Below are positions 5,458 through 38,277 of a DNA stretch of 40,977 bases, piece by piece. Under the pieces are notes generated by a model. The model was not told the origin of the DNA and ran no database searches. It saw nothing but the letters and a program-made list of their open reading frames with translations. Positions within the stretch are counted from its first letter, which is position 1. Every line of letters begins with the position of its first letter. Made by a program: the position numbers and the translations under genes. This DNA comes from a virus (lineage: Duplodnaviria; Heunggongvirae; Uroviricota; Caudoviricetes): IMG/VR virus record IMGVR_UViG_2563366910_000001. One strand, written 5' to 3'.

Positions 5458-6039
5458 ATGAACAACTCATGGTGGCAGGAACTAATGCATTTTTTCCTGC
5501 AAGGAATGACACTTAAACAGTTGATTCATATGCTAATCATCCTGATCATATTGATTATTGTTATGCCGGTAAGCGTAAAAGAATGGATAAACCTGCATAG
5601 TCCAGAAATCCTTCCTCATTACTGGATGTATTACATCCTGTTGTTTTGCGTTAGCTATGTGCTTAACGGCGTTGTTAATTCCGCTTATCACGCTGTGACT
5701 GAAAGAATTGAGGTATTCGCTGCTCAGAAGCGCAAATCTAAAGAAGAAAAATATGTGCAAGATTTGTTTGATTCGTTAACTCTTGGAGAAAGAGCGTATT
5801 TGGCATTCGCTGTAGCCGCTAATAACCAGCTACAAACGGAAAAGGGCGCTCATGAATCAATTTCATTGCTCAAAAAAGGACTCCTCGTTCGAAGGCCTCC
5901 TGCTGTTGGATATCCTGATACCGACCGTTTCGTTATCCCTGAAAGCTATAGACATGAGTGCTACATTAGGTTTGCCGGGAAGGCAGACAGCCTTATGGAT
6001 GAACTTATCGCTCAGGATAAGCATGGCAAAAACAAGTAA
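5458..6039 (+). CDS. sieB: Superinfection exclusion protein B-like membrane protein
   Basis: 193-aa ORF with a hydrophobic N-terminal region (LIHMLIILIILIIVMPV...YYILLFCVSYVL). Rightward gene convergent with N, immediately left of it, which is the sieB position in lambda. AT-rich. Confidence 0.5.
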   Translation: MNNSWWQELMHFFLQGMTLKQLIHMLIILIILIIVMPVSVKEWINLHSPEILPHYWMYYILLFCVSYVLNGVVNSAYHAVTERIEVFAAQKRKSKEEKYVQDLFDSLTLGERAYLAFAVAANNQLQTEKGAHESISLLKKGLLVRRPPAVGYPDTDRFVIPESYRHECYIRFAGKADSLMDELIAQDKHGKNK

Positions 6040-6764: not shown

Positions 6765-7517
6765 TTATGCTGCAAGTCTCTTAACCCAAGTCTCTCTTTT
6801 GGAGAATGGTAGAACTTGGCTTGATTCATGGAAGAGTAAGGAGAGTTGTTGCATTTGATCACCAATTGCTTCGCTGTCTATAACAACAAATCTGTTGTTA
6901 TACTCCTCACTTGAAGCTTTAAGATCAATTAGTTTCCCAAGCAATGAGTAAGCACTATTCCAGCTTCCTCCGTGTTTCACGCTTGATGTAAAAACGTATT
7001 TAGGTATGTCGGTTTTTATTGTTACAGGGACGGTAATTTGATGTCCACTCAAGCCATATACGTTTTCACGAAGAGAAAGTGCGTCTCTAAGCTCTGTGTG
7101 ATATAGATAATCAATAACCATACTTTCAAACTTTTCAGCTTGAACTGGCTGATACCAGTCTAACGACAAAGTTGATGCGAGTATACCAGCTCTAATTATG
7201 TTCGATGTAATCGCACCGACATCCTTTTCTGTTGCCCAAGCAATGATTTCTCCTCGAGCATTGAGTTCTGCGCCTTCTTTAAGCAGTAATTGTCGTATCT
7301 CATCAAGTCGTTTTTTGGTAAGCGAGATCCCTCTTGCCTCCATATTCATTAAGGCATCGCATCTGTCACTAACTAAATACCTACCATTGACTTCACGGAT
7401 AAAGGCACCGACATGCTCTCCATCATCACAGTAAGTGAATGGACTGATAATTCTCAAGGTCTTGCCTATTGGATGGCATTCGAAACCTAGTTGTGAGATC
7501 ACTGTTGAGCACATCAT
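6765..7517 (-). CDS. Hypothetical protein (250 aa), distal gene of cI-linked cassette
   Basis: ATG at 7515-7517 overlaps the upstream stop (ATGA coupling). AT-rich relative to flanking phage genes. No motif recognised. Followed by the terminator at 6733-6759. Confidence 0.6.
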   Translation of the reverse strand: MMCSTVISQLGFECHPIGKTLRIISPFTYCDDGEHVGAFIREVNGRYLVSDRCDALMNMEARGISLTKKRLDEIRQLLLKEGAELNARGEIIAWATEKDVGAITSNIIRAGILASTLSLDWYQPVQAEKFESMVIDYLYHTELRDALSLRENVYGLSGHQITVPVTIKTDIPKYVFTSSVKHGGSWNSAYSLLGKLIDLKASSEEYNNRFVVIDSEAIGDQMQQLSLLFHESSQVLPFSKRETWVKRLAA

Positions 7518-8071
7518 ATTCCAAACCCCATTTGCCCCGACTCATCTTCAAGCGGTAAAGGTATTCTCCCAGAGTAAGTTATGTTCAGATGTTTACAGAA
7601 GTAATTCCAATACCCTACCAGGTCATCTGGGTTTATGTCATCTTCGATTGGAAACGCTATTCTATCACTATAGTATCCAGCTTCTTCATAGTATACATGG
7701 TAGTGAGCACCGTAAATGATATCTTGGTACTTCGGATGATCGACCTTGTAACTATTCGTGTGTTTGTCAAAGTGATAGGTATCTACCGCGAAAACCCTCT
7801 TGTTATGATAGAAAGCAATAATATTTATTTTAGGGTAAGAAATCGGGTCATCAGGTTCTGAATCCTGATCTGGTTTCCATTTCAGTTCAAACTTTAGCCC
7901 TTGTATAGGTATACAATCCTCATCCAAGGGGATGATATGGGCTTGTAGCCACATATCAGAGCGACTTGGTTTCTGTTTCCATTTAACGCCAGAAAAGTTA
8001 ACTATTTTTTTACAATAAAGTACTTTATCAACTTCTACTTGGCTTGGCTGATAATCATCTATTTTTGCCAA
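7514..8071 (-). CDS. Hypothetical protein (185 aa), proximal gene of cI-linked cassette
   Basis: ORF begins 39 nt after the cI stop. The only start at the 5' end is TTG (8069-8071) with a weak SD; the next in-frame ATG is at 7954. AT-rich, His/Tyr/Asp-rich C-terminal half. No motif recognised. Confidence 0.5.
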   Translation of the reverse strand: MAKIDDYQPSQVEVDKVLYCKKIVNFSGVKWKQKPSRSDMWLQAHIIPLDEDCIPIQGLKFELKWKPDQDSEPDDPISYPKINIIAFYHNKRVFAVDTYHFDKHTNSYKVDHPKYQDIIYGAHYHVYYEEAGYYSDRIAFPIEDDINPDDLVGYWNYFCKHLNITYSGRIPLPLEDESGQMGFGI

Positions 8072-8110: not shown

Positions 8111-8764
8111 TCACCCAAACGTCTCTTCAGGCCATTGGCTGGCGATAACTTTCCCCACAACGGAACAACTCTCATTGCATGGGATCATTGGGTATTGTGG
8201 GTTTAGTGGCTGTAGAAACACCTGACCGCTATCCCTGATCAGTTTCTTGAAGGTAAATTCATCACCACCAAGTCTGGCTATGCAGAAATCGCCGGGCTCA
8301 ACAGCTTGCTCAGGGTCAACCAGAATTAACATCCCGTCAGGAAAGCTGGGTTTGGAACCTGTTGGTGCGGTCATTGAGTTACCTTCAACCTCAAGCCAGA
8401 ATGCAGAGTCACTGGCTTTTTTGGTTGTGCTTACCAATCTCTCCGCATCGCCTTTGGTAAAGGTTCTGAGTTCTGGAGAGAACATCCCAGCCTGAACATG
8501 AGAAAAAACAGGGTACTCATATTGTTTTTTAACTGGGGCCGATGAGTATTCGCCAACAGGTGAAAATGTCCCGTCGTGGTTGAATGATATGTTATCAATA
8601 CCAAGGTATTTAAACACCACACCAATATCACTAAGAGATGGATGACGAGATCCGCGCAACCAGTGTCCAATCCCACCCTGCGTCATACCTAGCTCTTCGG
8701 CTAACTTCTCTTGAGTTATGCCGAGCTCTTTCATTCTGGATCTAGCCAGTTCATACCATTTCAT
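8111..8764 (-). CDS. cI: CI-type prophage repressor (HTH_XRE + S24 LexA-like peptidase domain)
   Basis: N-terminal HTH ([20 protein letters not shown]) and a C-terminal S24 autocleavage domain. Start chosen at ATG 8762-8764 (AAGGA 7 nt upstream); alternative starts at 8770, 8806 and 8812. Confidence 0.85.
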
Positions 8765-8881
8765 TTTCATGTCCTTATTATTACGCTCTGTACTGGAACC
8801 ATCCATGCACAATGTGTATTTTTACTTGTATTCGCAAAGTACATATTGTATTTTTTTATTCGTGTTTACTATGGAGGGCAT
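8765..8881. promoter_or_regulatory. Divergent PRM/PR promoter and OR operator region
   Basis: 117-bp AT-rich intergenic region between divergent cI and cro, with repeated ACA-n3-TGT palindromes (ACAATGTGT 8809-8817; TACATATTGTA 8841-8851). Confidence 0.45.
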
Positions 8882-12490: not shown

Positions 12491-12663
12491 GACGACAGCG
12501 ACGAAGCATCACCGACATAATCTGCGAAAACTGCAAATACCTTCCAACGAAACGCTCCAGAAATAAACGCAAGCTAATCCCAAAAGAATCTGACGTAAAA
12601 ACCTTCAATTACACAGCCCACCTGTGGGATATCCGGTGGCTAAGATATCGTGCGAGGAAATGA
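12487..12663 (+). CDS. ninE: NinE
   Basis: 58-aa protein [29 protein letters not shown]..., matching recalled lambda/DLP12 NinE. ATGA overlap with the methyltransferase stop. Confidence 0.7.
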
Positions 12664-12665
12664 CA

Positions 12666-13007
12666 ATGGATTATTCACAGTTAAGTGATTTTGAAATTAA
12701 CAGAATGGTAGGAGACATAATTTTTAAAGGCCTTTGGGCAAGTAAACCGGAAACATCAGGGAATAACACCAACAAATGGTATTACGGAAATGCTGATACA
12801 ACTTTTGAGCCATTAAATCATTTGCCTGACTACTGCAATGATCCGAGCGCTTCATGGCCGATTATTGAGAAATACAGGATTTCTATCTTAGACCAGTTAA
12901 CTGAATGGTGTGTGGATGCAAAAGGCGTAAGCCCAATATTTGATACCAGACCTCTCCGCGCCGCCATGATTGTCTTTCTCCTGATGCAGGAGGCCAATAA
13001 TGCTTAG
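12666..13007 (+). CDS. Hypothetical nin-region protein (113 aa)
   Basis: ATG at 12666 with GAGGA 7 nt upstream. Position corresponds to a DLP12-type nin-region ORF; family not confidently recognised. Confidence 0.5.
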
Positions 13008-13194
13008 CCCATCTCAATCCCTTCAATACCTGAAAGAAAGCATAGAGCGGGCTTCAATGTGCACAGAGTGGATTCTATCTAGGTTTAGCGCATACAGAAG
13101 ATTGCCGGTAAAGGGCATGCCAAGCAAGTCGATGCTGCATATGCAAAAGAATGCGCGCTGGAAGGTATGGCGAGAACACAGGTTATGTGGCTGA
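13000..13194 (+). CDS. NinF-like small protein (N-terminus lambda-like, C-terminus divergent)
   Basis: Begins [18 protein letters not shown] like recalled lambda NinF, but the remainder lacks the Cys-rich segment. Confidence 0.45.
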
Positions 13195-13213
13195 AAGAGG
13201 GGGTTATTAAGGC

Positions 13214-13576
13214 GTGAATACCTACAGCATCACATTACCCTGGCCTCCGGGCAATAATCGCTATTACCGCCATAATCGCGGGCGCACGCACGTCAGCGCA
13301 GAGGGGCAGGCATACCGCGATAACGTCGCCCGAATCATTAAAAACGCAATGCTGGATATCGGCCTGGCTATGCCTGTGAAAATCCGCATTGAGTGCCACA
13401 TGCCGGATCGCCGTCGCCGTGACCTGGATAATCTGCAAAAAGCCGCTTTTGACGCACTCACTAAAGCAGGTTTCTGGCTGGATGATGCTCAGGTCGTTGA
13501 TTACCGCGTTGTGAAGATGCCTGTTACCAAAGGTGGGAGGCTGGAACTGACCATCACCGAAATGGGGAATGAATGA
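13214..13576 (+). CDS. rusA: RusA Holliday junction resolvase
   Basis: 120-aa protein [37 protein letters not shown]..., matching recalled E. coli DLP12 RusA. GTG start. Confidence 0.9.
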
Positions 13577-13713
13577 TGTTTGAGTTTAATATGGCAGAAC
13601 TTCTTCGCCACCGCTGGGGGCGTCTGCGCTTATATCGTTTCCTCGGTTCTGTTTTGACCGATTACCGAATACTGAAGAATTACGCCAAAACCCTGACAGG
13701 AACAGGAGTATGA
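13573..13713 (+). CDS. YlcG-like small protein (46 aa)
   Basis: Small ORF ([26 protein letters not shown]...) overlapping the rusA stop, at the ylcG position of DLP12 between rusA and Q. Below the ORF-track size cutoff; found by reading the sequence. Confidence 0.45.
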
Positions 13714-13798
13714 AGTCAGAGATAACAATCAACTAATACTGTTTTGTTGATTTTTGCTTGTAATTGGCGTTCTGGTCTGATTTTTGTGGAGTAAGTTG

Positions 13799-14182
13799 AT
13801 GCGTGATATTCAGATGGTTCTTGAGCGTTGGGGTGCGTGGGCGGCTAATAATCATGAAGATGTGACCTGGTCGTCCATTGCCGCCGGTTTTAAGGGATTA
13901 ATTCCTTCAAAAGTAAAATCTCGCCCGCAATGTTGTGACGATGACGCGATGATCATTTGCGGGTGCATGGCCCGTCTGAAAAAGAACAACAGCGATTTAC
14001 ACGATTTATTAGTAGATTATTATGTATGTGGTATGACATTCATGTCACTGGCAAGTAAGCATTGCTGCTCGGATGGTTATATCGGGAAAAGGTTACAGAA
14101 GGCTGAGGGCATAATTGAAGGGATGTTAATGGCATTAGATATCCGGTTAGATATGGATATCGTTGCTAATAATTCTAATTGA
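13799..14182 (+). CDS. Q: Late antiterminator Q (phage 82/DLP12 QuuD type)
   Basis: 127-aa protein [24 protein letters not shown]... with a Cys-rich zinc-binding segment ([12 protein letters not shown]), matching recalled QuuD. ATG at 13799 with GGAG 7 nt upstream. Confidence 0.85.
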
Positions 14183-14203
14183 TATGCAATTGTTTACTAA
14201 AAG

Positions 14204-14233
14204 TTATTAAAAATGGGGCGTGGAAACGCCCCC
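14204..14233 (-). terminator. Candidate minus-strand terminator downstream of the porin gene
   Basis: GGGGCG-tggaaa-CGCCCC hairpin with a U-run on the minus strand only. Confidence 0.35.
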
Positions 14234-14320
14234 AAAATAAAGGGTAATATATAACAGAAGGTTTATATAGTAAGAAGCAAGGTAGTGCTTCTAAAGGAAG
14301 TGGCTTGAGGGCTCCACTTA

Positions 14321-14359
14321 TATGTTGCGGAGGCAAAGCCTCCCGCAACATATCTTTTT
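14321..14359 (+). terminator. Rho-independent terminator downstream of Q (tR'-like)
   Basis: ~13-bp near-perfect hairpin (TATGTTGCGGAGGC / GCCTCCCGCAACATA) followed by TCTTTTTC, ~140 nt after the Q stop. Geometry matches a PR'-tR' arrangement. Confidence 0.5.
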
Positions 14360-14370
14360 CGTAAGTCAGA

Positions 14371-15453
14371 TTAGAACTGATAAACCAGACCTACAGCGAC
14401 GATGTCGTCGGTATCAATACCAGCTGTTTTGGTAAACTTACTATCGTCAATTAAGTTGATTTTGTAATCAACAAAAGTGGACATGTTTTTATTAAAGTAG
14501 TAAGTAGCACCGACATCGACATACTTGACTAAGTCTCGGTCACCATGAACACCAAGGTCTTTACCTTTTGACTGAAGGTAAGCAACAGATGGACGCAGAC
14601 CGAAGTCAAACTGATATTGTGCTACTGCTTCAAAGTTTTGTGCTTTGTTTGCAATATGGTTATTACCAAAAACGGTCATATTCTGAGTTTCAGAATATGT
14701 GGTAGCCAGATAGATATTGTTCGCATCATATTTCAGGCCTGCAGCCCATACTTCCGCATTTTTGCCGGAGGCATTGAATTTGCTCTTACCATAGGCGACC
14801 TGACCGTCAGTGCGATCTGATTTAGCATAGGTTGCACCCACGCCGAATCCTTCATACTCATAAGTAGTGGAGAAACCGAAACCATCACCATTGGCTTCAG
14901 TTACGTCAGTGCGGTCATTTTTACCCTGATACTGAGCAGCAAAGTTCAGGCCATCGACCAGACCAAAGAAGTCGTTGTTACGATAAGTTGCAACACCAGT
15001 AGTGCGACCAGTCATGAACACATCTGTTTGGGTCCAGGTATCACCACCGAATTCTGGCAGAACGTCAGTCCACGCACCGATGTCGTATGCTACACCGTAG
15101 TTACGGCCGTAATCGATTGAGCCGTAATCACCAAATTTCAGGCCTGCAAATGCAAGACGGGTTTTGTCTTTGGAAGAACCTTGAGATTCAGCACGGTTGC
15201 CTTTGAATTCATATTCCCACTGACCGAAACCAGTCAGTTGATCGTTGATTTGGGTTTCACCTTTGAAGCCAAGACGGGCATAAGTAGTATCACCATCATC
15301 TGCATCATTAGAGGAGAAGTAGTGCTTGGCATTAACTTTCCCGTATAGATCCAGCTTGTTACTGTCTTTATTATAAATTTCAGCTGCCTGAGCAGACATC
15401 GCCATCAGTACTGATGCAGCTACAGCAGAAATTGCCACTGTTAATTTTTTCAT
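14371..15453 (-). CDS. nmpC: Outer-membrane porin, OmpC/NmpC/Lc family (phage-encoded)
   Basis: 360-aa protein with signal peptide ([23 protein letters not shown]), AEIYNKD start of the mature protein, and the C-terminal ...VGLVYQF beta-barrel signature of general porins. Antisense to the late transcript, between Q and the lysis genes as in DLP12/PA-2. Confidence 0.9.
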
Positions 15454-15880
15454 TGTACGCCCTTTTTTTGAACTTTTATTAAAAAATGATGTCACTGCGC
15501 GATAAATATTCATCTAATCAATGTGATTATTTCAAGATGTAAGTTTTAGTTTCTCATTTAATTTGTGAAGTAGATCTCTATTTTTATCTGAACCTTTTCT
15601 ATCTAATCCTATTCATGGCTCTTGTCTGAACAAAAATAAATCTATTAGCTAATTTATATTAATGGCACTTATTTATAAGTGCTCTATAATTCTTTAGCTT
15701 AATTTAAACAAACTAAAAATAACATCGGAAATTATTAACTGGTTATTTGTTGAAGCTTTCTTATGCATTTGTGGTGGTGTTTTGAACACTCGGTGGCATT
15801 CTCACAAATATCATTTAGTAGTTTACGTACGTAAAAAATTGGTTATGCTGTTAAGAGTGGTTACTTCGTCACACAGCTTA

Positions 15881-15912
15881 AACCCGCCGTCGAGCGGGTT
15901 TTTCCATTTTTT
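15881..15912 (+). terminator. Candidate intrinsic terminator upstream of the lysis cassette
   Basis: AACCCGC-cgtcga-GCGGGTT hairpin followed by TTTCCATTTTTT in the AT-rich 528-bp spacer between the porin start and the holin. Confidence 0.45.
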
Positions 15913-16041
15913 GAGTCTCGATATTAGCTGATAACCCAATACCTGAGTTATTCACTGACTCCGAATCTGTTACGTTTCTGCCTTTATTGCGATACGTAGT
16001 ATCCCCTTAATTTACACCCGCTTTGTCTGCGAGGTGGGGTT

Positions 16042-16257
16042 ATGAAATCCATGGATAAGTTAACAACGGGTGTCGCCTATGGTACCTCAGCAGGTAGTGC
16101 CGGGTACTGGTTTTTACAGTTGCTCGATAAAGTCACGCCCTCACAGTGGGCGGCAATAGGTGTGCTGGGTAGCCTGGTATTTGGCCTGCTGACGTACCTG
16201 ACAAACCTTTATTTCAAGATTAAAGAAGATAAGCGCAAGGCTGCGAGAGGTGAATAA
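16042..16257 (+). CDS. Holin, phage-21 S21 (class II, pinholin) type
   Basis: 71-aa protein with two transmembrane segments and a basic C-terminus ([13 protein letters not shown]); matches recalled S21/EssD. Confidence 0.9.
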
Positions 16258-16754
16258 TGCCTCCATCATTACGAAAAGCCGTTGCTGCTGCTATTGGTGG
16301 CGGAGCAATTGCTATAGCATCAGTGTTAATCACTGGCCCAAGTGGTAACGATGGTCTGGAAGGTGTCAGCTACATACCATACAAAGATATTGTTGGTGTA
16401 TGGACTGTATGTCACGGGCATACAGGAAAAGACATCATGCTCGGTAAAACGTATACCAAAGCAGAATGCAAAGCCCTCCTGAATAAAGACCTTGCCACGG
16501 TCGCCAGACAAATTAACCCGTACATCAAAGTCGATATACCGGAAACAATGCGCGGCGCTCTTTACTCATTCGTTTACAACGTGGGTGCTGGCAATTTCAG
16601 AACATCGACGCTTCTTCGCAAAATAAACCAGGGCGATATCAAAGGCGCATGTGATCAGCTACGTCGCTGGACATATGCTGGCGGTAAGCAATGGAAAGGT
16701 CTCATGACTCGTCGTGAGATTGAGCGTGAAATCTGTTTGTGGGGTCAGCAATGA
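16257..16754 (+). CDS. Endolysin (GH24 lysozyme with N-terminal SAR signal-anchor-release domain)
   Basis: 165-aa ORF with a Gly/Ala-rich N-terminal hydrophobic segment ([18 protein letters not shown]) followed by a T4-lysozyme-like catalytic region. Start overlaps the holin stop. Confidence 0.9.
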
Positions 16755-17212
16755 ACAGAGTAACCGCGATTATCTCCGCTCTGGTTATCTGCATCATCGT
16801 CTGCCTGTCATGGGCTGTTAATCATTACCGTGATAACGCCATTACCTACAAAGCCCAGCGCGACAAAAATGCCAGAGAACTGACGCTGGCGAACGCGGCA
16901 ATTACTGACATACAGATGCGTCAGCGTGATGTTGCTGCGCTCGATGCAAAATACACGAAGGAGTTAGCTGATGCGAAAGCTGAAAATGATGCTCTGCGTG
17001 ATGATGTTGCCGCTGGTCGTCGTCGGTTGCACATCAAAGCAGTCTGTCAGTCAGTGCGTGAAGCCACCACCGCCTCCGGCGTGGATAATGCAGCCTCCCC
17101 CCGACTGGCAGACACCGCTGAACGGGATTATTTCACCCTCAGAGAGAGGCTGATCACTATGCAAAAACAACTGGAAGGAACCCAGAAGTATATTAATGAG
17201 CAGTGCAGATAG
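16751..17212 (+). CDS. Rz: Rz i-spanin
   Basis: 153-aa type II membrane protein with an N-terminal TM and coiled-coil periplasmic domain. ATGA overlap with the endolysin stop. Confidence 0.85.
16971..17153 (+). CDS. Rz1: Rz1 o-spanin (lipoprotein embedded in the +1 frame of Rz)
   Basis: 60-aa ORF fully inside Rz with a lipobox (LVVVGC) and proline-rich mature region ([15 protein letters not shown]). Confidence 0.75.
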
Positions 17213-17243
17213 AGCTGCCCATATCGATGGGCAACTCATGCAA

Positions 17244-17537
17244 TTATTGTGAGCAATACACACGCGCTTCCAGCGGAGTATAAATGCCTAAAGTAATAAA
17301 ACCGAGCAATCCATTTACGAATGTTTGCTGGGTTTCTGTTTTAACAACATTTTCTGCACCACCACAAATTTTTGCTGCATCGACAGTTTTCTTCTGCCCA
17401 ATTCCCGAAACGAAGAAATGATGGGTGATGGTTTCCTTTGGTGTTACTGCTGTAGGTTTGTTTCCAACAGTAAACGTCTGTTGAGCACATCCTGTAATAA
17501 GCATTGCCAGAGCGGCAGAAAACAACATTTTTTTCAT
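17244..17537 (-). CDS. bor: Bor lipoprotein (serum-resistance factor)
   Basis: 97-aa protein MKKMLFSAALAMLITGCAQQTFTV... with a lipobox; matches recalled lambda Bor. Opposite strand, just downstream of Rz. Confidence 0.85.
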   Translation of the reverse strand: MKKMLFSAALAMLITGCAQQTFTVGNKPTAVTPKETITHHFFVSGIGQKKTVDAAKICGGAENVVKTETQQTFVNGLLGFITLGIYTPLEARVYCSQ

Positions 17538-18017
17538 CTTATTATCCTGCATTGTTAAAAACGGCAGAATCCTATGTGACAACAATTAAACGATAGTTAA
17601 ATGGATTGATGAAAATTAAAACTACACAGGTGGGCTCAGACTATTGGAGGAAGTTGGGGACACTCAGAATCCTGTGGAATGAAATAAACCGGTCTATCCG
17701 TCCATTACCCTTTTAGCTGCGCTGTATCGTCGCCGTATTCCCGCATTAACCATGACCGTAGCCCGACGGGGAATTCCTTCTGCGTGAGTGTGCGGGAATA
17801 ATTAAAAACGATGCACACCGGGTTTTTACCGCGTTAATGATTCGCGGGTTTATCCCGGTGCGATGGTGGAAGAAACAGGAAGCTGTATTACAGAAAGTGC
17901 TACTACTGTATCCCGATGCGATGTATGTAATGTGAGTCAGATAATGGCACAGGATGTGGTGATGTGGCAGTCTGGAACACAGGATATATTGTCAGAATAA
18001 GACCCGTAGGAATAAAA

Positions 18018-18344
18018 ATGAAAAGACGCCTTTTACTACTTTTTCTGTTATCTGTCCTGGCAGTGGGATGCTCGCAGCAAAAAGCTGATGAGCCCCGGCA
18101 ATTAGTGACGGTGTATCCACGATATCCGGAATATGCTGCAGCAAATTATATCAAGGGGCTGGTTGAGGTTAAGTTCGATATTGGTGCTGATGGGACTGTG
18201 ACACGGATCGTTTTTCTCCGCTCAGAGCCTCATAATTTGTTTCGTGATGAAGTGGTGAAGGCCATGGCGAAATGGCGATTTGAAAAGAATCGCCCCTGTC
18301 AGGGAGTGAAGAGACAATTTATCTTTACGCCGTCACGTCCTTGA
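18018..18344 (+). CDS. Lipoprotein with TonB C-terminal-like domain
   Basis: Signal peptide plus lipobox (LLSVLAVGCSQQ), then YPRYPEYAAANYIKGLVEVKFDIGADGTVTRIVFLRSEP...KWRFE, which resembles the TonB C-terminal fold signature (YP..A...EG.V.V.F.I...G.V). Confidence 0.5.
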   Translation: MKRRLLLLFLLSVLAVGCSQQKADEPRQLVTVYPRYPEYAAANYIKGLVEVKFDIGADGTVTRIVFLRSEPHNLFRDEVVKAMAKWRFEKNRPCQGVKRQFIFTPSRP

Positions 18345-18466
18345 TGCTTCCAGGTAGAGAGGGGCTGGAAGCAGGAGAAAAATGAAAGAGCCAGCGGTTA
18401 TATTTTTGTCATGGCTGACGAGGAATGATGGAAGAAGGCGTTGTATGCCACACAACGCCTCACTGT

Positions 18467-18820
18467 TCATTTCTTCTTTTTCTCTGGTGGAACCCGATGA
18501 ATAAGAGTTGCACTGGTTTCCGATGAGATGGCGATATACTCGGGCAAAGTATGCTGGCAGTTTTCCAACTGGTCAAAAATACCTGCTCTCGTCTGTTGCA
18601 ATGCCTGCAGCATGCGGCGGCAATGCGCCTTGCTTTTACTAACCATCTTTCCTTCCTCTATCAGTCGCTGCGTGAACTCATCATGGAATACCAGGTAAAT
18701 GCGGATGTTATCGGTTTTGGCTACGCAGCATAGTACAAAACGGACAGGTGCATCCCGGGACGGGGGAGGCGTCACATGTCCCTGTGATGGTTGTTCCGGG
18801 TAATGTACTGTGTGGGGCAT
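18467..18820 (-). CDS. Hypothetical protein (possible 3' part of a frameshifted gene)
   Basis: 117-aa ORF overlapping the 3' end of ORF 18708..18959 in another frame; may be a frameshift-disrupted gene or two overlapping genes. Confidence 0.3.
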   Translation of the reverse strand: MPHTVHYPEQPSQGHVTPPPSRDAPVRFVLCCVAKTDNIRIYLVFHDEFTQRLIEEGKMVSKSKAHCRRMLQALQQTRAGIFDQLENCQHTLPEYIAISSETSATLIHRVPPEKKKK

Positions 18821-18959
18821 AAAAATGTCCGATAATTTTACTTTCTACCGCAGTTAGTTGATTCGTTGGTCCTGGTAGCACATTGGGCGAGGATTTAAAT
18901 GCCAGGCAACTGAAGGATGATGTCGCAAGGGAGATAGCGAGAATATTTCTGATTTTCAT
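18708..18959 (-). CDS. Putative secreted protein (signal peptide), possibly 5' part of a frameshifted gene
   Basis: In-frame start MKIRNILAISLATSSFSCLA gives a typical signal peptide; ORF overlaps 18467..18820. Confidence 0.35.
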   Translation of the reverse strand: MKIRNILAISLATSSFSCLAFKSSPNVLPGPTNQLTAVESKIIGHFYAPHSTLPGTTITGTCDASPVPGCTCPFCTMLRSQNR

Positions 18960-19107
18960 TTGATGATGCCTCTGTGTGAAATGACGGTAAACGACGCACT
19001 TGTGCCGGCACATAATAGCAAGCACCATAATAGATCAGATTCGATTCTTGCTGTAAGTGATAATTATTCTCGTTTTCGGGTCCTTTCCGTCGATCCAACA
19101 GGTTACG

Positions 19108-34800: not shown

Positions 34801-37800
34801 ATGGGTAAAGGCAGCAGTAAGGGGCATACCCCGCGCGAAGCGAAGGACAACCTGAAATCATCCCAGATGCTGAGCGTGATAGACGCCATCAGCGAAGGGC
34901 CGGTTGAAGGTCCGGTGGATGGATTAAAAAGCGTGCTGCTGAACAGTACGCCGGTGCTGGACAGTGAGGGGAATACCAATATATTCGGCGTCACGGTGGT
35001 GTTCCGGGCCGGTGAGCAGGAGCAGACACCGCCGGAGGGATTTGAATCCTCCGGCTCCGAGACGGTGCTCGGTACAGAAGTGAAATATGACACGCCGATC
35101 ACCCGGACCATCACGTCGGCAAACATTGACCGTCTGCGTTTTACTTTCGGCGTGCAGGCACTGGTGGAAACCACCTCAAAGGGGGACAGGAATCCATCGG
35201 AAGTCCGCCTGCTGGTTCAGATTCAACGTAACGGTGGCTGGGTGACGGAAAAAGACATCACCATTAAGGGCAAAACCACGTCGCAGTATCTGGCCTCGGT
35301 GGTGGTGGATAACCTGCCGCCGCGCCCGTTTAATATCCGGATGCGCAGGATGACGCCGGACAGCACCACAGACCAGTTGCAGAACAAAACGCTCTGGTCG
35401 TCATACACCGAAATCATCGATGTGAAACAGTGCTACCCGAACACGGCACTGGTCGGCGTACAGGTGGACTCGGAGCAGTTCGGCAGCCAGCAGGTGAGCC
35501 GTAATTATCATCTTCGCGGGCGCATTCTGCAGGTGCCGTCGAACTATAACCCGCAGACGCGGCAATACAGCGGTATCTGGGACGGAACGTTTAAGCCAGC
35601 ATACAGCAACAACATGGCCTGGTGTCTGTGGGATATGCTGACCCATCCGCGCTACGGCATGGGGAAACGTCTTGGTGCGGCAGATGTGGATAAATGGGCG
35701 CTGTATGTCATCGGCCAGAATTGCGACCAGTCAGTGCCGGACGGCTTTGGCGGCACGGAGCCGCGCATCACCTGTAATGCGTACCTGACCACACAGCGCA
35801 AGGCGTGGGATGTGCTCAGTGATTTTTGCTCGGCGATGCGCTGTATGCCGGTATGGAACGGGCAGACGCTGACATTCGTGCAGGACCGACCGTCGGATAA
35901 GGTGTGGACCTATAACCGCAGTAATGTGGTGATGCCGGATGATGGCGCGCCGTTCCGCTACAGCTTCAGCGCCCTGAAAGACCGCCATAATGCCGTTGAG
36001 GTGAACTGGATTGACCCGGATAACGGCTGGGAGACGGCGACAGAGCTTGTGGAGGACACGCAGGCCATTGCCCGTTACGGTCGTAACGTCACGAAGATGG
36101 ATGCCTTTGGCTGTACCAGCCGGGGGCAGGCACACCGCGCCGGGCTGTGGCTGATTAAAACGGAGCTGCTGGAAACGCAGACCGTGGACTTCAGCGTGGG
36201 TGCAGAAGGGCTTCGCCATGTACCGGGCGATGTCATTGAAATCTGTGATGATGACTATGCGGGGATCAGCATCGGCGGGCGCGTGCTGGCGGTGAACAAC
36301 CAGACGCGGACACTGACGCTCGACCGTGAAATCACGCTGCCATCCTCCGGCACCACGCTGATAAGCCTGGCTGACGGACAGGGGAATCCGGTCAGCGTGG
36401 AGGTCCAGTCCGTCACCGACGGCGTGAAGGTAAAAGTGAGCCGTGTTCCTGACGGCGTTGCAGAATACAGCGTGTGGGGGCTGAAGTTGCCAACGTTGCG
36501 CCAGCGCCTGTTCCGCTGTGTGAGTATCCGTGAGAACGATGACGGCACGTATGCCATCACTGCCGTGCAGCATGTACCGGAAAAAGAGGCCATCGTGGAT
36601 AACGGGGCGCACTTTGACGGCGACCAGAGCGGCACGGTGAATGGTGTCACGCCGCCAGCGGTGCAGCACCTGACTGCCGAAGTCACCGCAGACAGCGGGG
36701 AATATCAGGTGCTGGCGCGCTGGGACACGCCGAAGGTGGTGAAGGGGGTGAGCTTTATGCTTCGCCTGACCGTGGCAGCGGATGACGGCAGTGAGCGGCT
36801 GGTCAGCACGGCCCGGACGACGGAAACCACATACCGCTTCAGGCAACTGGCGCTGGGGAACTACAGGCTGACAGTCCGGGCGGTAAATGCGTGGGGGCAG
36901 CAGGGCGATCCGGCATCGGTATCGTTCCGGATTGCCGCACCGGCAGCGCCGTCGCAGATTGAGCTGACACCGGGGTATTTTCAGATAACCGCCACGCCGC
37001 ATCTTGCGGTTTATGATCCGACGGTACAGTTTGAGTTCTGGTTCTCGGAAAAGCGGATTGCGGATATCAGGCAGGTTGAAACCACAGCACGCTATCTTGG
37101 CACGGCGCTGTACTGGATAGCCGCCAGTATCAATATCAAACCGGGCCATGATTATTATTTTTACATCCGCAGTGTGAACACCGTTGGCAAATCGGCATTT
37201 GTGGAGGCTGTTGGCCAGCCGAGTGATGATGCATCCGGCTATCTGAATTTTTTCAAAGGAGAGATAGGGAAAACCCATCTGGCTCAGGAGTTGTGGACGC
37301 AGATTGATAACGGTCAGCTTGCGCCTGACCTGGCTGAAATCAGGACGTCCATTACGGGTGTCAGCAATGAAATCACGCAGACCGTCAATAAGAAACTGGA
37401 AGACCAGAGTGCAGCGATCCAGCAGATACAGAAGGTTCAGGTTGATACAAATAATAACCTGAACAGCATGTGGGCTGTGAAGCTGCAGCAGATGCAGGAC
37501 GGACGCCTTTATATCGCGGGTATTGGTGCCGGTGTTGAGAATACTCCTGACGGTATGCAGAGTCAGGTGCTGCTGGCGGCGGACAGGATTGCGATGATTA
37601 ATCCTGCGAATGGCAACACAAAGCCGATGTTTGTTGGGCAGGGCGATCAGATATTCATGAACGAAGTGTTCCTGAAATATCTGACGGCTCCCACCATTAC
37701 CAGCGGTGGCAATCCCCCAACGTTTTCACTGACACCTGATGGTCGACTTTCTGCGAAAAATGCGGATATCAGCGGTAACGTGAACGCGAACTCCGGGACG

Positions 37801-38277
37801 CTCAACAACGTCACGATTAATCAGAACTGTCGGATTCTGGGAAAACTGTCAGCTAACCAGATTGAAGGTGATATTGTCAAAACGGTGGGAAAAGCCTTTC
37901 CGAGAAATGGCAGTTATGCCAGCGGTACAATAACGGTCACTGTGTACGATGACCAGGCTTTTGACCGTCAGATAGTAGTCCCCCCCGTTCTGTTTCGTGG
38001 GGGTAAGCATGAAAACTTCAACAGCAACAACCAACAGTCATACTGGTATTCAACCTGTAAGCTGCAGGTACTGAAGAACGGACAGGAAATCTTTCAGCAA
38101 CCCGCGACGGATGTCAGCAGGGTATTTTCATCAGTCATTGATATGCCTGCCGGACACGGCCATGTCACCCTGACTTTCAATGTTTCTTCATATGGTGCTA
38201 ATAACTGGACGCCAACGACCAGTATCAGCGACCTTCTTGTTGTTGTGATGAAGAAATCTACAGCCGGTATCAGTTGA
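34801..38277 (+). CDS. J: Central tail fibre / host specificity protein J
   Basis: 1158-aa ORF. The N-terminal ~900 aa closely follow recalled lambda J; the C-terminal ~250 aa differ. Confidence 0.95.

Follow-up and report, generated by a model that had tools for sequence, protein, structure and literature searches.

The 40,977-nt stretch of caudoviricete DNA that we analyzed (IMG/VR record IMGVR_UViG_2563366910_000001; here called the window) very probably carries a classical lysogenic-conversion (“moron”) module of the lambdoid phages of the DLP12/PA-2 type. The module comprises an NmpC/Lc porin gene with the promoter region belonging to it and a 3′ untranslated region (UTR) of the IpeX type, and it is placed antisense between gene Q and the lysis genes in a phage that elsewhere resembles phage 21. 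By sequence comparison, the porin and its module belong to the NmpC/Lc prophage type, which is already known and occurs in many lambda-like prophages of E. coli: descriptions of the nmpC/lc porin of qsr′-type prophages go back to the 1970s-80s, and those of IpeX to 2006. The features of the region are listed in Table 1.

Table 1. Features of the porin module and of related loci in the window
Feature	Position	Strand	Remarks
Late-gene antiterminator Q (QuuD type)	13799..14182	+	PF06530, E 7.7e-54; RefSeq quuD; part of DLP12-type module
3′ UTR of porin transcript, IpeX equivalent	14205..14370	-	Several stem-loops, terminator at end
Intrinsic terminator of porin/IpeX transcript	14215..14232	-	GGGGCG stem then AUUUUU; scan; fold -13.8 kcal/mol; conserved in K-12 and PA-2
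Long hairpin with U-tract CUUUUU	14320..14353	+	Folds on both strands, z about -6; conserved in K-12 and PA-2
Porin gene (NmpC/Lc/OmpD type)	14371..15453	-	ORF, Pfam, NCBIfam, RefSeq coordinates, homology
Porin upstream regulatory region	15454..16041	-	588 bp, 33.5% G+C, no insertion sequence
CRP (cAMP receptor protein) site 1, predicted	15561..15581	-	About 108-128 nt before start codon; 21/21 identical to J02580 misc_binding
CRP site 2, predicted	15856..15876	-	Adjoins the 15880-15901 hairpin; 21/21 identical to second J02580 CRP feature
Intrinsic terminator, rightward transcription	15880..15901	+	UUUUUCCAUUUUUU follows on + strand; scan; fold; between porin promoter region and holin
P21-type holin (EssD/S21)	16042..16257	+	PF04971, E 2e-35; first late gene past porin module
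Central tail fibre J	34801..38277	+	1157/1158 identical to phage 21 J

The porin gene is antisense to its neighbours, with Q on one side and the genes for holin, lysozyme, Rz/Rz1 and Bor/Iss on the other. The open reading frames and Pfam matches thus bear out an earlier note on this DNA, which had described the porin gene in this place and in this orientation relative to the late operon. The order Q-porin-holin and the opposite orientation of the porin gene are common to CFT073, K-12 DLP12, ev017, 434B and NC-SV. DLP12 (qsr′) has the same order rusA-ylcG-quuD-nmpC-essD-rrrD-rzpD-borD, and the lc gene of PA-2 (J02580) is likewise located upstream of, and antisense to, the lysis genes. Homology to phage 21 stops at about position 12660 and starts again exactly at 16041, with 98.2% identity over 16041-19107; at the position of the window's QuuD, phage 21 has a different Q followed by tRNAs. 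The 2.6-kb region surrounding the porin (13700-16300) is 100% identical at the DNA level to CFT073, Nissle 1917, ATCC 25922 and phage ev017, and 2393 of the 5426 complete E. coli genomes contain 80% or more of it. CFT073 differs from the window in having a disrupted cI gene and insertions of ISEc10 and of IS3, none of which is found in the window.

The porin ORF, which ends with a stop codon at 14371-14373 on the minus strand, is complete and encodes a product of 360 aa. Its start is the ATG at 15453 (MKKLTVAIS...), which is used by RefSeq and by the peptide annotation of J02580; a 380-aa reading frame from the ATG at 15513 was rejected, being merely the longest ORF. The signal peptide comprises 23 aa, the mature protein begins with AEIYNKD and ends with ...VGLVYQF, and the boundaries of signal and mature peptide are as annotated in the PA-2 lc record. 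Pfam Porin_1 (PF00267) was matched over all its profile positions (1-337/337; E 1.9e-151; 504.7 bits versus a cut-off of 23.7) and the NCBIfam “porin OmpC” subfamily NF007841 was passed with 521 bits (cut-off 484); these matches confirm the previously noted complete OmpC/NmpC-family gene. The top PDB matches were OmpC, OmpK36 and PhoE (E about 1e-137), and a beta-barrel of 16 strands was present in an AF2 model, the confidence of which is only moderate (pLDDT 70). Across 32 homologues, little or no variation was seen in the L3 constriction loop (PEFGGD) and in the C-terminal YQF. By these profile and sequence matches, the product is a general bacterial porin of the OmpC/OmpF/PhoE type, and homology suggests that it would form a trimeric outer-membrane diffusion channel. 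No match for the porin was obtained with PADLOC.

Comparison with the known members of the family showed where this porin stands. It is 91% identical to PA-2 Lc (331/365), from which it differs by being five residues shorter, whereas the signal peptides are identical; it is also 91% identical to K-12 NmpC (over 346 aa). The next closest relative is OmpD of Salmonella and Citrobacter, which belongs to the same subfamily (about 79% identity) and shares the invariant L3 loop and the C-terminal YQF, but its gene lies on the chromosome and not in a prophage, and it starts with another signal peptide (MKLKLVAVA...). The chromosomal OmpC of K-12 belongs to the same Pfam and NCBIfam families but is only 63% identical; the long insertion in loop L4 of OmpC is missing in the window porin, and other loops differ as well. 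The exact porin protein is present on at least 1000 contigs, under the names “porin OmpC” or “outer membrane porin protein LC”. In view of the 63% identity, the RefSeq label “porin OmpC” is a family name and does not denote an orthologue of K-12 OmpC, and it hides the prophage NmpC/Lc allele.

The differences from Lc and NmpC map almost exclusively to the modelled loops L4-L8, so that the window porin represents another L4-L8 surface-loop allele than either of them. At the DNA level, identity to lc is 97% at codons 1-175 and falls to 75% at codons 176-360. Judged by sequence, the 3′ half of the gene, which encodes L4-L8, is a recombinant segment.

The region upstream of the porin is AT-rich, as had been noted: its G+C content is 33.5% over 15454-16041 and 29% over 15454-15880, versus 50.6% in the window. 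The length of 528 bp (15514-16041) given for it was wrong, and 588 bp is right, because the gene starts at 15453 and not at 15513. The observation that no insertion sequence is present held, since the region is colinear with the DNA upstream of K-12 nmpC (95% identity with a single 17-bp indel, which adjoins the holin gene) and of PA-2 lc (91%). The contrast with K-12 that this observation implied did not hold, because the K-12 IS5B element sits after codon 346, at the 3′ end of the coding sequence of what is annotated as a pseudogene, and upstream of the gene K-12 shows no more disruption than the window; what does differ is that the window copy of the gene is complete.

A suggestion that the leader may hold regulatory signals was strengthened by the two CRP sites annotated in J02580, which the earlier note had missed and which are both kept without a single difference. 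Scans of the minus strand upstream of the porin with the sigma-70 consensus, in a standard and a relaxed form, did not reveal a convincing promoter; the best weak candidate was TTGAAA-18/19-GAATAT/AATATT at 15535-15505. The lack of a strong sigma-70 consensus fits an activator-dependent promoter. For the late promoter pR′, the same scans did not give a convincing sigma-70 candidate between Q and position 14320.

The porin had been described as bracketed by terminator hairpins. A consensus scan detected three terminator-like sites versus 1.8 ± 1.1 expected, a count that alone is not significant, and the case for the hairpins is therefore carried by folding and conservation. Folding gave z scores of -2.6 to -6.0 for the three hairpins, each of which is conserved in K-12, PA-2 or both; the one at 15880-15901 is identical in K-12 and has one stem mismatch in PA-2, and the one at 14320-14353 was overlooked by the scan owing to a one-base bulge. 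Thus, all three are real, but a single one of them, 14215-14232, is a terminator of the porin transcript; the other two have the opposite orientation and terminate rightward transcription of the late operon. The hairpin at 14320-14353 likely ends a short rightward leader transcript downstream of Q, a tR′-like role that we infer; read on the minus strand, it forms the first of the IpeX stem-loops.

The 3′ UTR that follows the porin gene, an IpeX equivalent not recognized in the earlier note, folds at -53.6 kcal/mol (z = -6.1) and is 166 nt long, versus 167 nt reported for IpeX. It is about 94-95% identical to the sequence after K-12 nmpC (about 95%) and PA-2 lc (94%, with the same terminator). 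In both of these, IpeX occupies the same place directly after the porin stop codon and is strongly structured, and the window variant is about 10 substitutions or indels away. By its sequence, the window 3′ UTR corresponds to the IpeX region found in DLP12 and PA-2. A search of the whole window against Rfam at gathering thresholds gave no matches, so that neither IpeX nor a late leader RNA of the 6S type is backed at the level of an RNA family; as IpeX is without an Rfam model, its assignment here rests on sequence identity. According to reviews, IpeX is made from the porin transcript and represses OmpC and OmpF post-transcriptionally, and an IpeX-type RNA of the window would, if it has the function described in the literature, lower the levels of both. 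The IpeX-type 3′ UTR is unannotated in the RefSeq records inspected (CFT073, K-12 and NC101).

Another small RNA, RybB, is reported to have nmpC among its targets. A RybB seed match on the porin mRNA (CAGUGGC, 15440-15434, -13.9 kcal/mol) was rejected as too weak, being equalled by 6% of shuffles.

On the basis of the characterized homologues, from which its steps are carried over, the module may work as follows. A cAMP-CRP-responsive promoter belonging to the porin gene would drive its leftward transcription in the lysogen, regardless of the repression of the late operon, as far as the terminator at 14215-14232. The protein would be inserted in the outer membrane as a trimeric general porin, and the 3′ UTR would yield IpeX RNA, causing a post-transcriptional drop in OmpC and OmpF. 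Since IpeX would lower OmpC and OmpF, the cell would partly swap its own porins for that of the phage. That phage porins of this type alter the outer-membrane composition, as had been stated, is known for PA-2 Lc plus IpeX. The exchange would alter permeability and take away OmpC and OmpF as receptors for other phages and colicins; protection against other phages that use OmpC or OmpF is plausible. During lytic growth, Q-modified RNA polymerase would read rightward past 14320-14353 and 15880-15901, antisense across the porin gene, to S-R-Rz.

Expression in the lysogen had been proposed as plausible, and data on CFT073 keep it so. The NmpC protein c1560 of this strain has been detected and is induced in urine (PMC2680622), and it is up at 37 °C (PMC12890032). 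Judged by its position in the gene order, c1560 is most likely the product of the CFT073 locus that is 100% identical to that of the window.

The same data allow a reading in which the module is mainly host-fitness or virulence cargo, that is, an alternative porin regulated by 37 °C and nutrients that, in the gut or urinary tract, affects antigenicity, permeability or the tolerance of stress or heat. We regard this as possible, if somewhat doubtful. Besides the up-regulation in urine and at 37 °C, it would account for NmpC being detected in 89% of the outer-membrane proteomes of UPEC, and NmpC has been linked to heat resistance in AW1.7 (as cited in PMC12890032). The porin also adjoins other surface cargo that is expressed in lysogens (Bor/Iss and a TonB_C lipoprotein), the CRP sites are consistent with nutrient control, and variation of the surface loops is compatible with selection by the immune system as much as by phages. 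This reading does not exclude the porin-exchange module described above, as both effects can coexist.

A more specific proposal starts from the receptor of the phage itself. Its J is nearly identical to that of phage 21, the native receptor of which is LamB, and a phage 21-type J can reach OmpC with as little as one mutation in the receptor-binding protein (PMC11336670). In a LamB-using phage of this kind, porin and IpeX together might guard the lysogen against unrelated phages that use OmpC or OmpF and close first the OmpC and then the OmpF escape route of the phage 21-type J, with the recombinant L4-L8 segment keeping the substitute porin from being used as a receptor. We consider this combination unlikely. 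The prophage NC-SV of the adherent-invasive strain NC101 is relevant to it: NC-SV lowers the adsorption of virulent phages, an effect credited to the sRNA svsR, and it encodes an identical porin protein in a module that is 99.2% identical. The text of the NC-SV paper does not mention the porin, nmpC or IpeX. Since NC-SV carries the same module, which its paper did not consider, part of the adsorption phenotype could stem from this module.

PA-2 uses OmpC as its receptor. In its lysogens, the lc transcript, which contains IpeX, reportedly yields Lc and causes the loss of OmpC. The earlier note had hinted at receptor-based superinfection exclusion; in a form like that described for PA-2, the phage would adsorb to OmpC (or OmpF) via a novel C-terminus of J, and the lysogen would replace this receptor with the phage porin, so that sister phages could not adsorb. 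The C-terminus does differ from that of lambda J: the proteins are 83% identical and diverge after about residue 820. However, this divergent part is not a novel receptor-binding domain, because J matches that of phage 21 at 1157 of 1158 positions and its side tail fibre and that of phage 21 are 100% identical. With LamB rather than OmpC as the native receptor of this J, in which the phage 21-like backbone of the window differs from PA-2, an exchange of OmpC and OmpF for the phage porin would not exclude phages of its own kind. Moreover, the same porin module occurs with different J C-termini, for example in NC-SV, which argues that porin and receptor-binding domain are not coupled, and the prophage also encodes cI immunity and a SieB protein. 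Exclusion directed at its own kind was therefore not supported, and we consider it very improbable. An association between porin allele and J type was ruled out as well, since NC-SV has the porin with another J C-terminus and phage 21 has the J without the porin. A literature search on the receptors of ev017 and of the PhiR phages gave nothing usable.

Equally improbable in our view is an intact but silent gene without effect on the lysogen, for which the lack of a strong promoter consensus and the quiescence of nmpC in K-12 and E. coli B (reported in references of a citing paper) would speak, but the silence in K-12 has been attributed to the IS5 insertion that the window gene lacks, the identical CFT073 locus is most likely the source of the NmpC protein detected there, and Lc is made in lysogens of PA-2, whose upstream DNA is 91% identical and whose CRP sites do not differ.

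As a discovery, the module has little weight, its exact sequence being present in the standard strains CFT073, Nissle 1917 and ATCC 25922. The region of the porin module occurs in nearly half of the complete E. coli genomes. If heterologous protection is real, part of the reduced adsorption seen with NC-SV could come from the porin-IpeX module. The IpeX-type 3′ UTR, which thousands of genomes contain and which the inspected RefSeq records leave unannotated, may also easily escape notice when OmpC/OmpF levels, antibiotic permeability or phage susceptibility of clinical isolates are interpreted.

The window contains a complete porin gene of the OmpC/NmpC family that is antisense to the late operon, exactly where the earlier note had placed it. 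The product of the longest reading, a 380-aa ORF at 14371-15513 on the minus strand, matches Pfam Porin_1 across the entire profile (E 1.9e-151) and passes the NCBI curated 'porin OmpC' subfamily cut-off; those of the OmpF and PhoE subfamilies are not reached. The real start is the ATG at 15453 (MKKLTVAIS...), as indicated by the CFT073 RefSeq annotation and by the GenBank record of lc, the porin gene of lambdoid phage PA-2, in which a 23-aa signal peptide and a mature protein beginning with AEIYNKD... match this start. The 20 surplus codons of the 380-aa ORF are an artefact of choosing the longest ORF. Consequently, the gene product has 360 aa, and 588 bp (15454-16041) separate the porin and holin genes; the previous figure of 528 bp had been counted from 15513.

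Features of the porin module and of related loci (window positions unless stated otherwise)
Feature	Position	Strand	Remarks
RusA, YlcG, Q (QuuD type, PF06530)	before porin	+	Pfam/RefSeq
Hairpin, then AUUUUU	14215-14232	-	terminates porin/IpeX transcript
Hairpin, then CUUUUU	14320-14353	+	terminator for rightward transcription
Porin CDS	14371-15453	-	360 aa; Porin_1
CRP site	15561-15581		21/21 identical to PA-2 annotation; sequence comparison
CRP site	15856-15876		21/21 identical to PA-2 annotation; sequence comparison
Hairpin, then UUUUUCCAUUUUUU	15880-15901	+	terminator for rightward transcription
P21-type holin, lysozyme, Rz/Rz1	after porin	+	Pfam/RefSeq
Bor/Iss	17247-17540	-	next to lysis genes
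J	34801-38277		83% identical to lambda J
Upstream region			91% identity to PA-2 lc DNA
Porin gene, first part	codons 1-175		97% identity to PA-2 lc DNA
Porin gene, second part	codons 176-360		75% identity to PA-2 lc DNA
IpeX region			94% identity to PA-2 lc DNA
Loop L4 difference	residues 177-190		
Loop L5 difference	residues 214-231		
Loop L6 difference	residues 263-265		
Loop L7 difference	residues 299-305		
Loop L8 difference	residues 334-350		
NC-SV locus	NZ_CP072787, 2125603-2168253		porin at locus 14989-16071

The genes flanking the porin gene, Q on one side and the lysis genes on the other, agree with the earlier reading, and DLP12, the cryptic prophage of K-12, has the same order (rusA-ylcG-quuD-nmpC-essD-rrrD-rzpD-borD). 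The G+C content upstream of the porin gene is 33.5% (29% for 15454-15880), and that of the entire window is 50.6%. This upstream region is colinear with that of K-12 (95% identity, with a single 17-bp indel near the holin gene) and with that of PA-2 (91% identity). As had been claimed, it is intact and lacks an insertion sequence; however, this does not distinguish it from K-12, whose upstream region is equally intact, nmpC being split by IS5B after codon 346, at the 3' coding end. Regulatory signals had been suspected in this AT-rich leader, and both CRP sites annotated upstream of lc in the PA-2 record are indeed conserved. Consensus scans of the minus strand did not detect a good sigma-70 consensus, and the start site could not be placed by sequence; the missing consensus would be compatible with an activator-dependent porin promoter. 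The Bor homologue, named 'increased serum survival lipoprotein Iss' in CFT073 and NC101, is a second surface cargo gene adjoining the porin module. Between Bor/Iss and the terminase genes, 17964-18344 (+) encodes a protein of 126 aa that combines a lipoprotein-like signal with a C-terminal TonB domain (PF03544, E 1e-12); phage 21, CFT073 and NC-SV, a prophage of NC101, have it as well.

All three hairpins said to bracket the porin gene do fold, and the leftmost one ends the porin transcript. The other two, however, have their U-tracts on the plus strand and are therefore terminators of the opposite, rightward transcription. The hairpin at 14320-14353 may, in the manner of tR', end a short leader transcript that is synthesised downstream of Q, and that at 15880-15901 may insulate the lysis genes; the holin gene would then be reached only by Q-modified polymerase reading through both terminators, antisense across the porin gene. 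A late promoter was not found by consensus scan.

The 166 nt from the porin stop codon to the U-tract at ~14205 are 94-95% identical to the DNA downstream of K-12 nmpC and PA-2 lc, and their predicted fold is a series of stem-loops (-53.6 kcal/mol, z -6.1). In 2006, Castillo-Keller et al. reportedly placed ipeX in the noncoding sequence that separates the nmpC stop codon from the terminator, and the ipeX-carrying lc transcript is said to inhibit OmpC. Judged by its sequence, the porin 3' UTR is this ipeX region; Rfam gave no match for it. Elsewhere, ipeX is reported to lower both OmpC and OmpF (PMC12197685; PMC5069750; PMC8065619; PMC7177473).

The window porin is 91% identical to K-12 NmpC and to PA-2 Lc (331/365 for the latter), ~79% to OmpD of Salmonella and Citrobacter, which are the next relatives, and 63% to the chromosomal OmpC of K-12. 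An AlphaFold model built with 32 homologues, which is of moderate confidence (mean pLDDT 70), has the expected 16 strands, and the long loops hold the residues that differ between the window porin and Lc/NmpC. Nearly all indels in the family fall in these same loops (L4-L8), and L3 is invariant. Together with the segment identities, the loop differences suggest that the 3' half of the gene is a recombinant segment by which the exposed surface is altered. Database porin P0047 (alignment A3), with an OmpF-like N-terminal quarter and a remainder identical to the window porin, represents either more evidence of porin-gene recombination or a chimeric assembly.

The porin had been linked to a divergent C-terminus of the central tail fibre J, hinting at receptor-based superinfection exclusion. 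J indeed diverges from lambda J after ~residue 820, but it is identical to phage 21 J at 1157 of 1158 residues, and the following gene is the phage 21 side tail fibre (100%). From the holin gene to cos, the window resembles phage 21, with 98.2% identity for 16041-19107. Phage 21 contains no porin gene, and has Q21, its pR' and two tRNAs at the position of QuuD-IpeX-porin. The genome as a whole is of the phage 21 type (Jouyvirus), with a ninX-rusA-ylcG-Q-IpeX-porin block (12660-16040) in place of ninF/G/H-Q21-pR'-tRNA, and the right-hand junction of this block coincides exactly with the region of the holin start codon (16041). Since phage 21 combines the same J with the lack of a porin, the porin module and the receptor-binding domain are independent cassettes. 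The native receptor of phage 21 is LamB; a single mutation in its receptor-binding protein leads to OmpC use, and further J mutations to OmpF use (PMC11336670). The porin module thus does not remove the phage's own receptor, and a self-directed receptor exclusion is not supported.

Lambdoid prophage NC-SV, located at icd in the adherent-invasive strain NC101, encodes the identical porin protein (WP_000737271.1), and window 13128-16244 has a 99.2% match in it. According to a 2026 paper, NC-SV lowers the adsorption of virulent phages, which was credited to an sRNA at the cI end (PMC12803456); porin, nmpC and IpeX are not mentioned in its text, although the porin module may contribute to this effect. 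Between ral and N, the window (5458-6039, +) encodes a superinfection exclusion protein of the SieB family (PF14163, E 9e-22), so exclusion in this prophage already has its own gene, in addition to cI immunity. At the rexAB position, directly downstream of cI (8111-8812), two genes (6765-8071, -) encode a DUF1828 protein of 250 aa and a second protein, of 185 aa, that matches DUF6978 weakly. In PADLOC, the two match components B (E 4.7e-10) and A (E 4.8e-4) of PDC-M24, a candidate defence system, and could be a defence pair expressed in the lysogen.

Expression has been reported for CFT073, in which the NmpC (c1560) protein is up in urine (PMC2680622) and 37 C favours the transcript as well as the protein (PMC12890032); by gene-order rank alone, c1560 should be the gene identical to the window porin. 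According to a review (PMC9609314), 89% of the outer-membrane proteomes of UPEC contained NmpC. The gene is silent in K-12, where it carries IS5, and has been described as quiescent in E. coli B.

Chromosomes that carry window 13700-16300 at 100% identity include those of CFT073, Nissle 1917 and ATCC 25922. Among isolated temperate phages, ev017 and PhiR57_1 also match it at 100%, and ~12 others at 99%. The CFT073 copy of the prophage (1400500-1424936) is degraded, with insertions of ISEc10 (ea22 region) and IS3 (upstream of ninB) and a fragmented cI; this damage is absent from the window, though the two copies share a porin module of 100% identity. Phage 434B (OL657227) carries the K-12 DLP12 nmpC::IS5 region as a substitution. 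More distant nmpC-type porins (~75% DNA identity) are present in plasmid prophage P7 (AF503408) and its relatives, so porin cargo also extends beyond lambdoid phages. The exact porin protein, named 'porin OmpC' or 'outer membrane porin protein LC', is found on at least 1000 contigs, and its 90% cluster has 2741 members. Matches to window 13700-16300 were detected in 4672 of 5426 complete E. coli genomes (at least 80% in one place in 2393). The window porin is a textbook prophage cargo gene, already known and with a described mechanism (porin plus IpeX), that almost half of the complete E. coli genomes carry, and its module may plausibly protect against other OmpC/OmpF-dependent phages.
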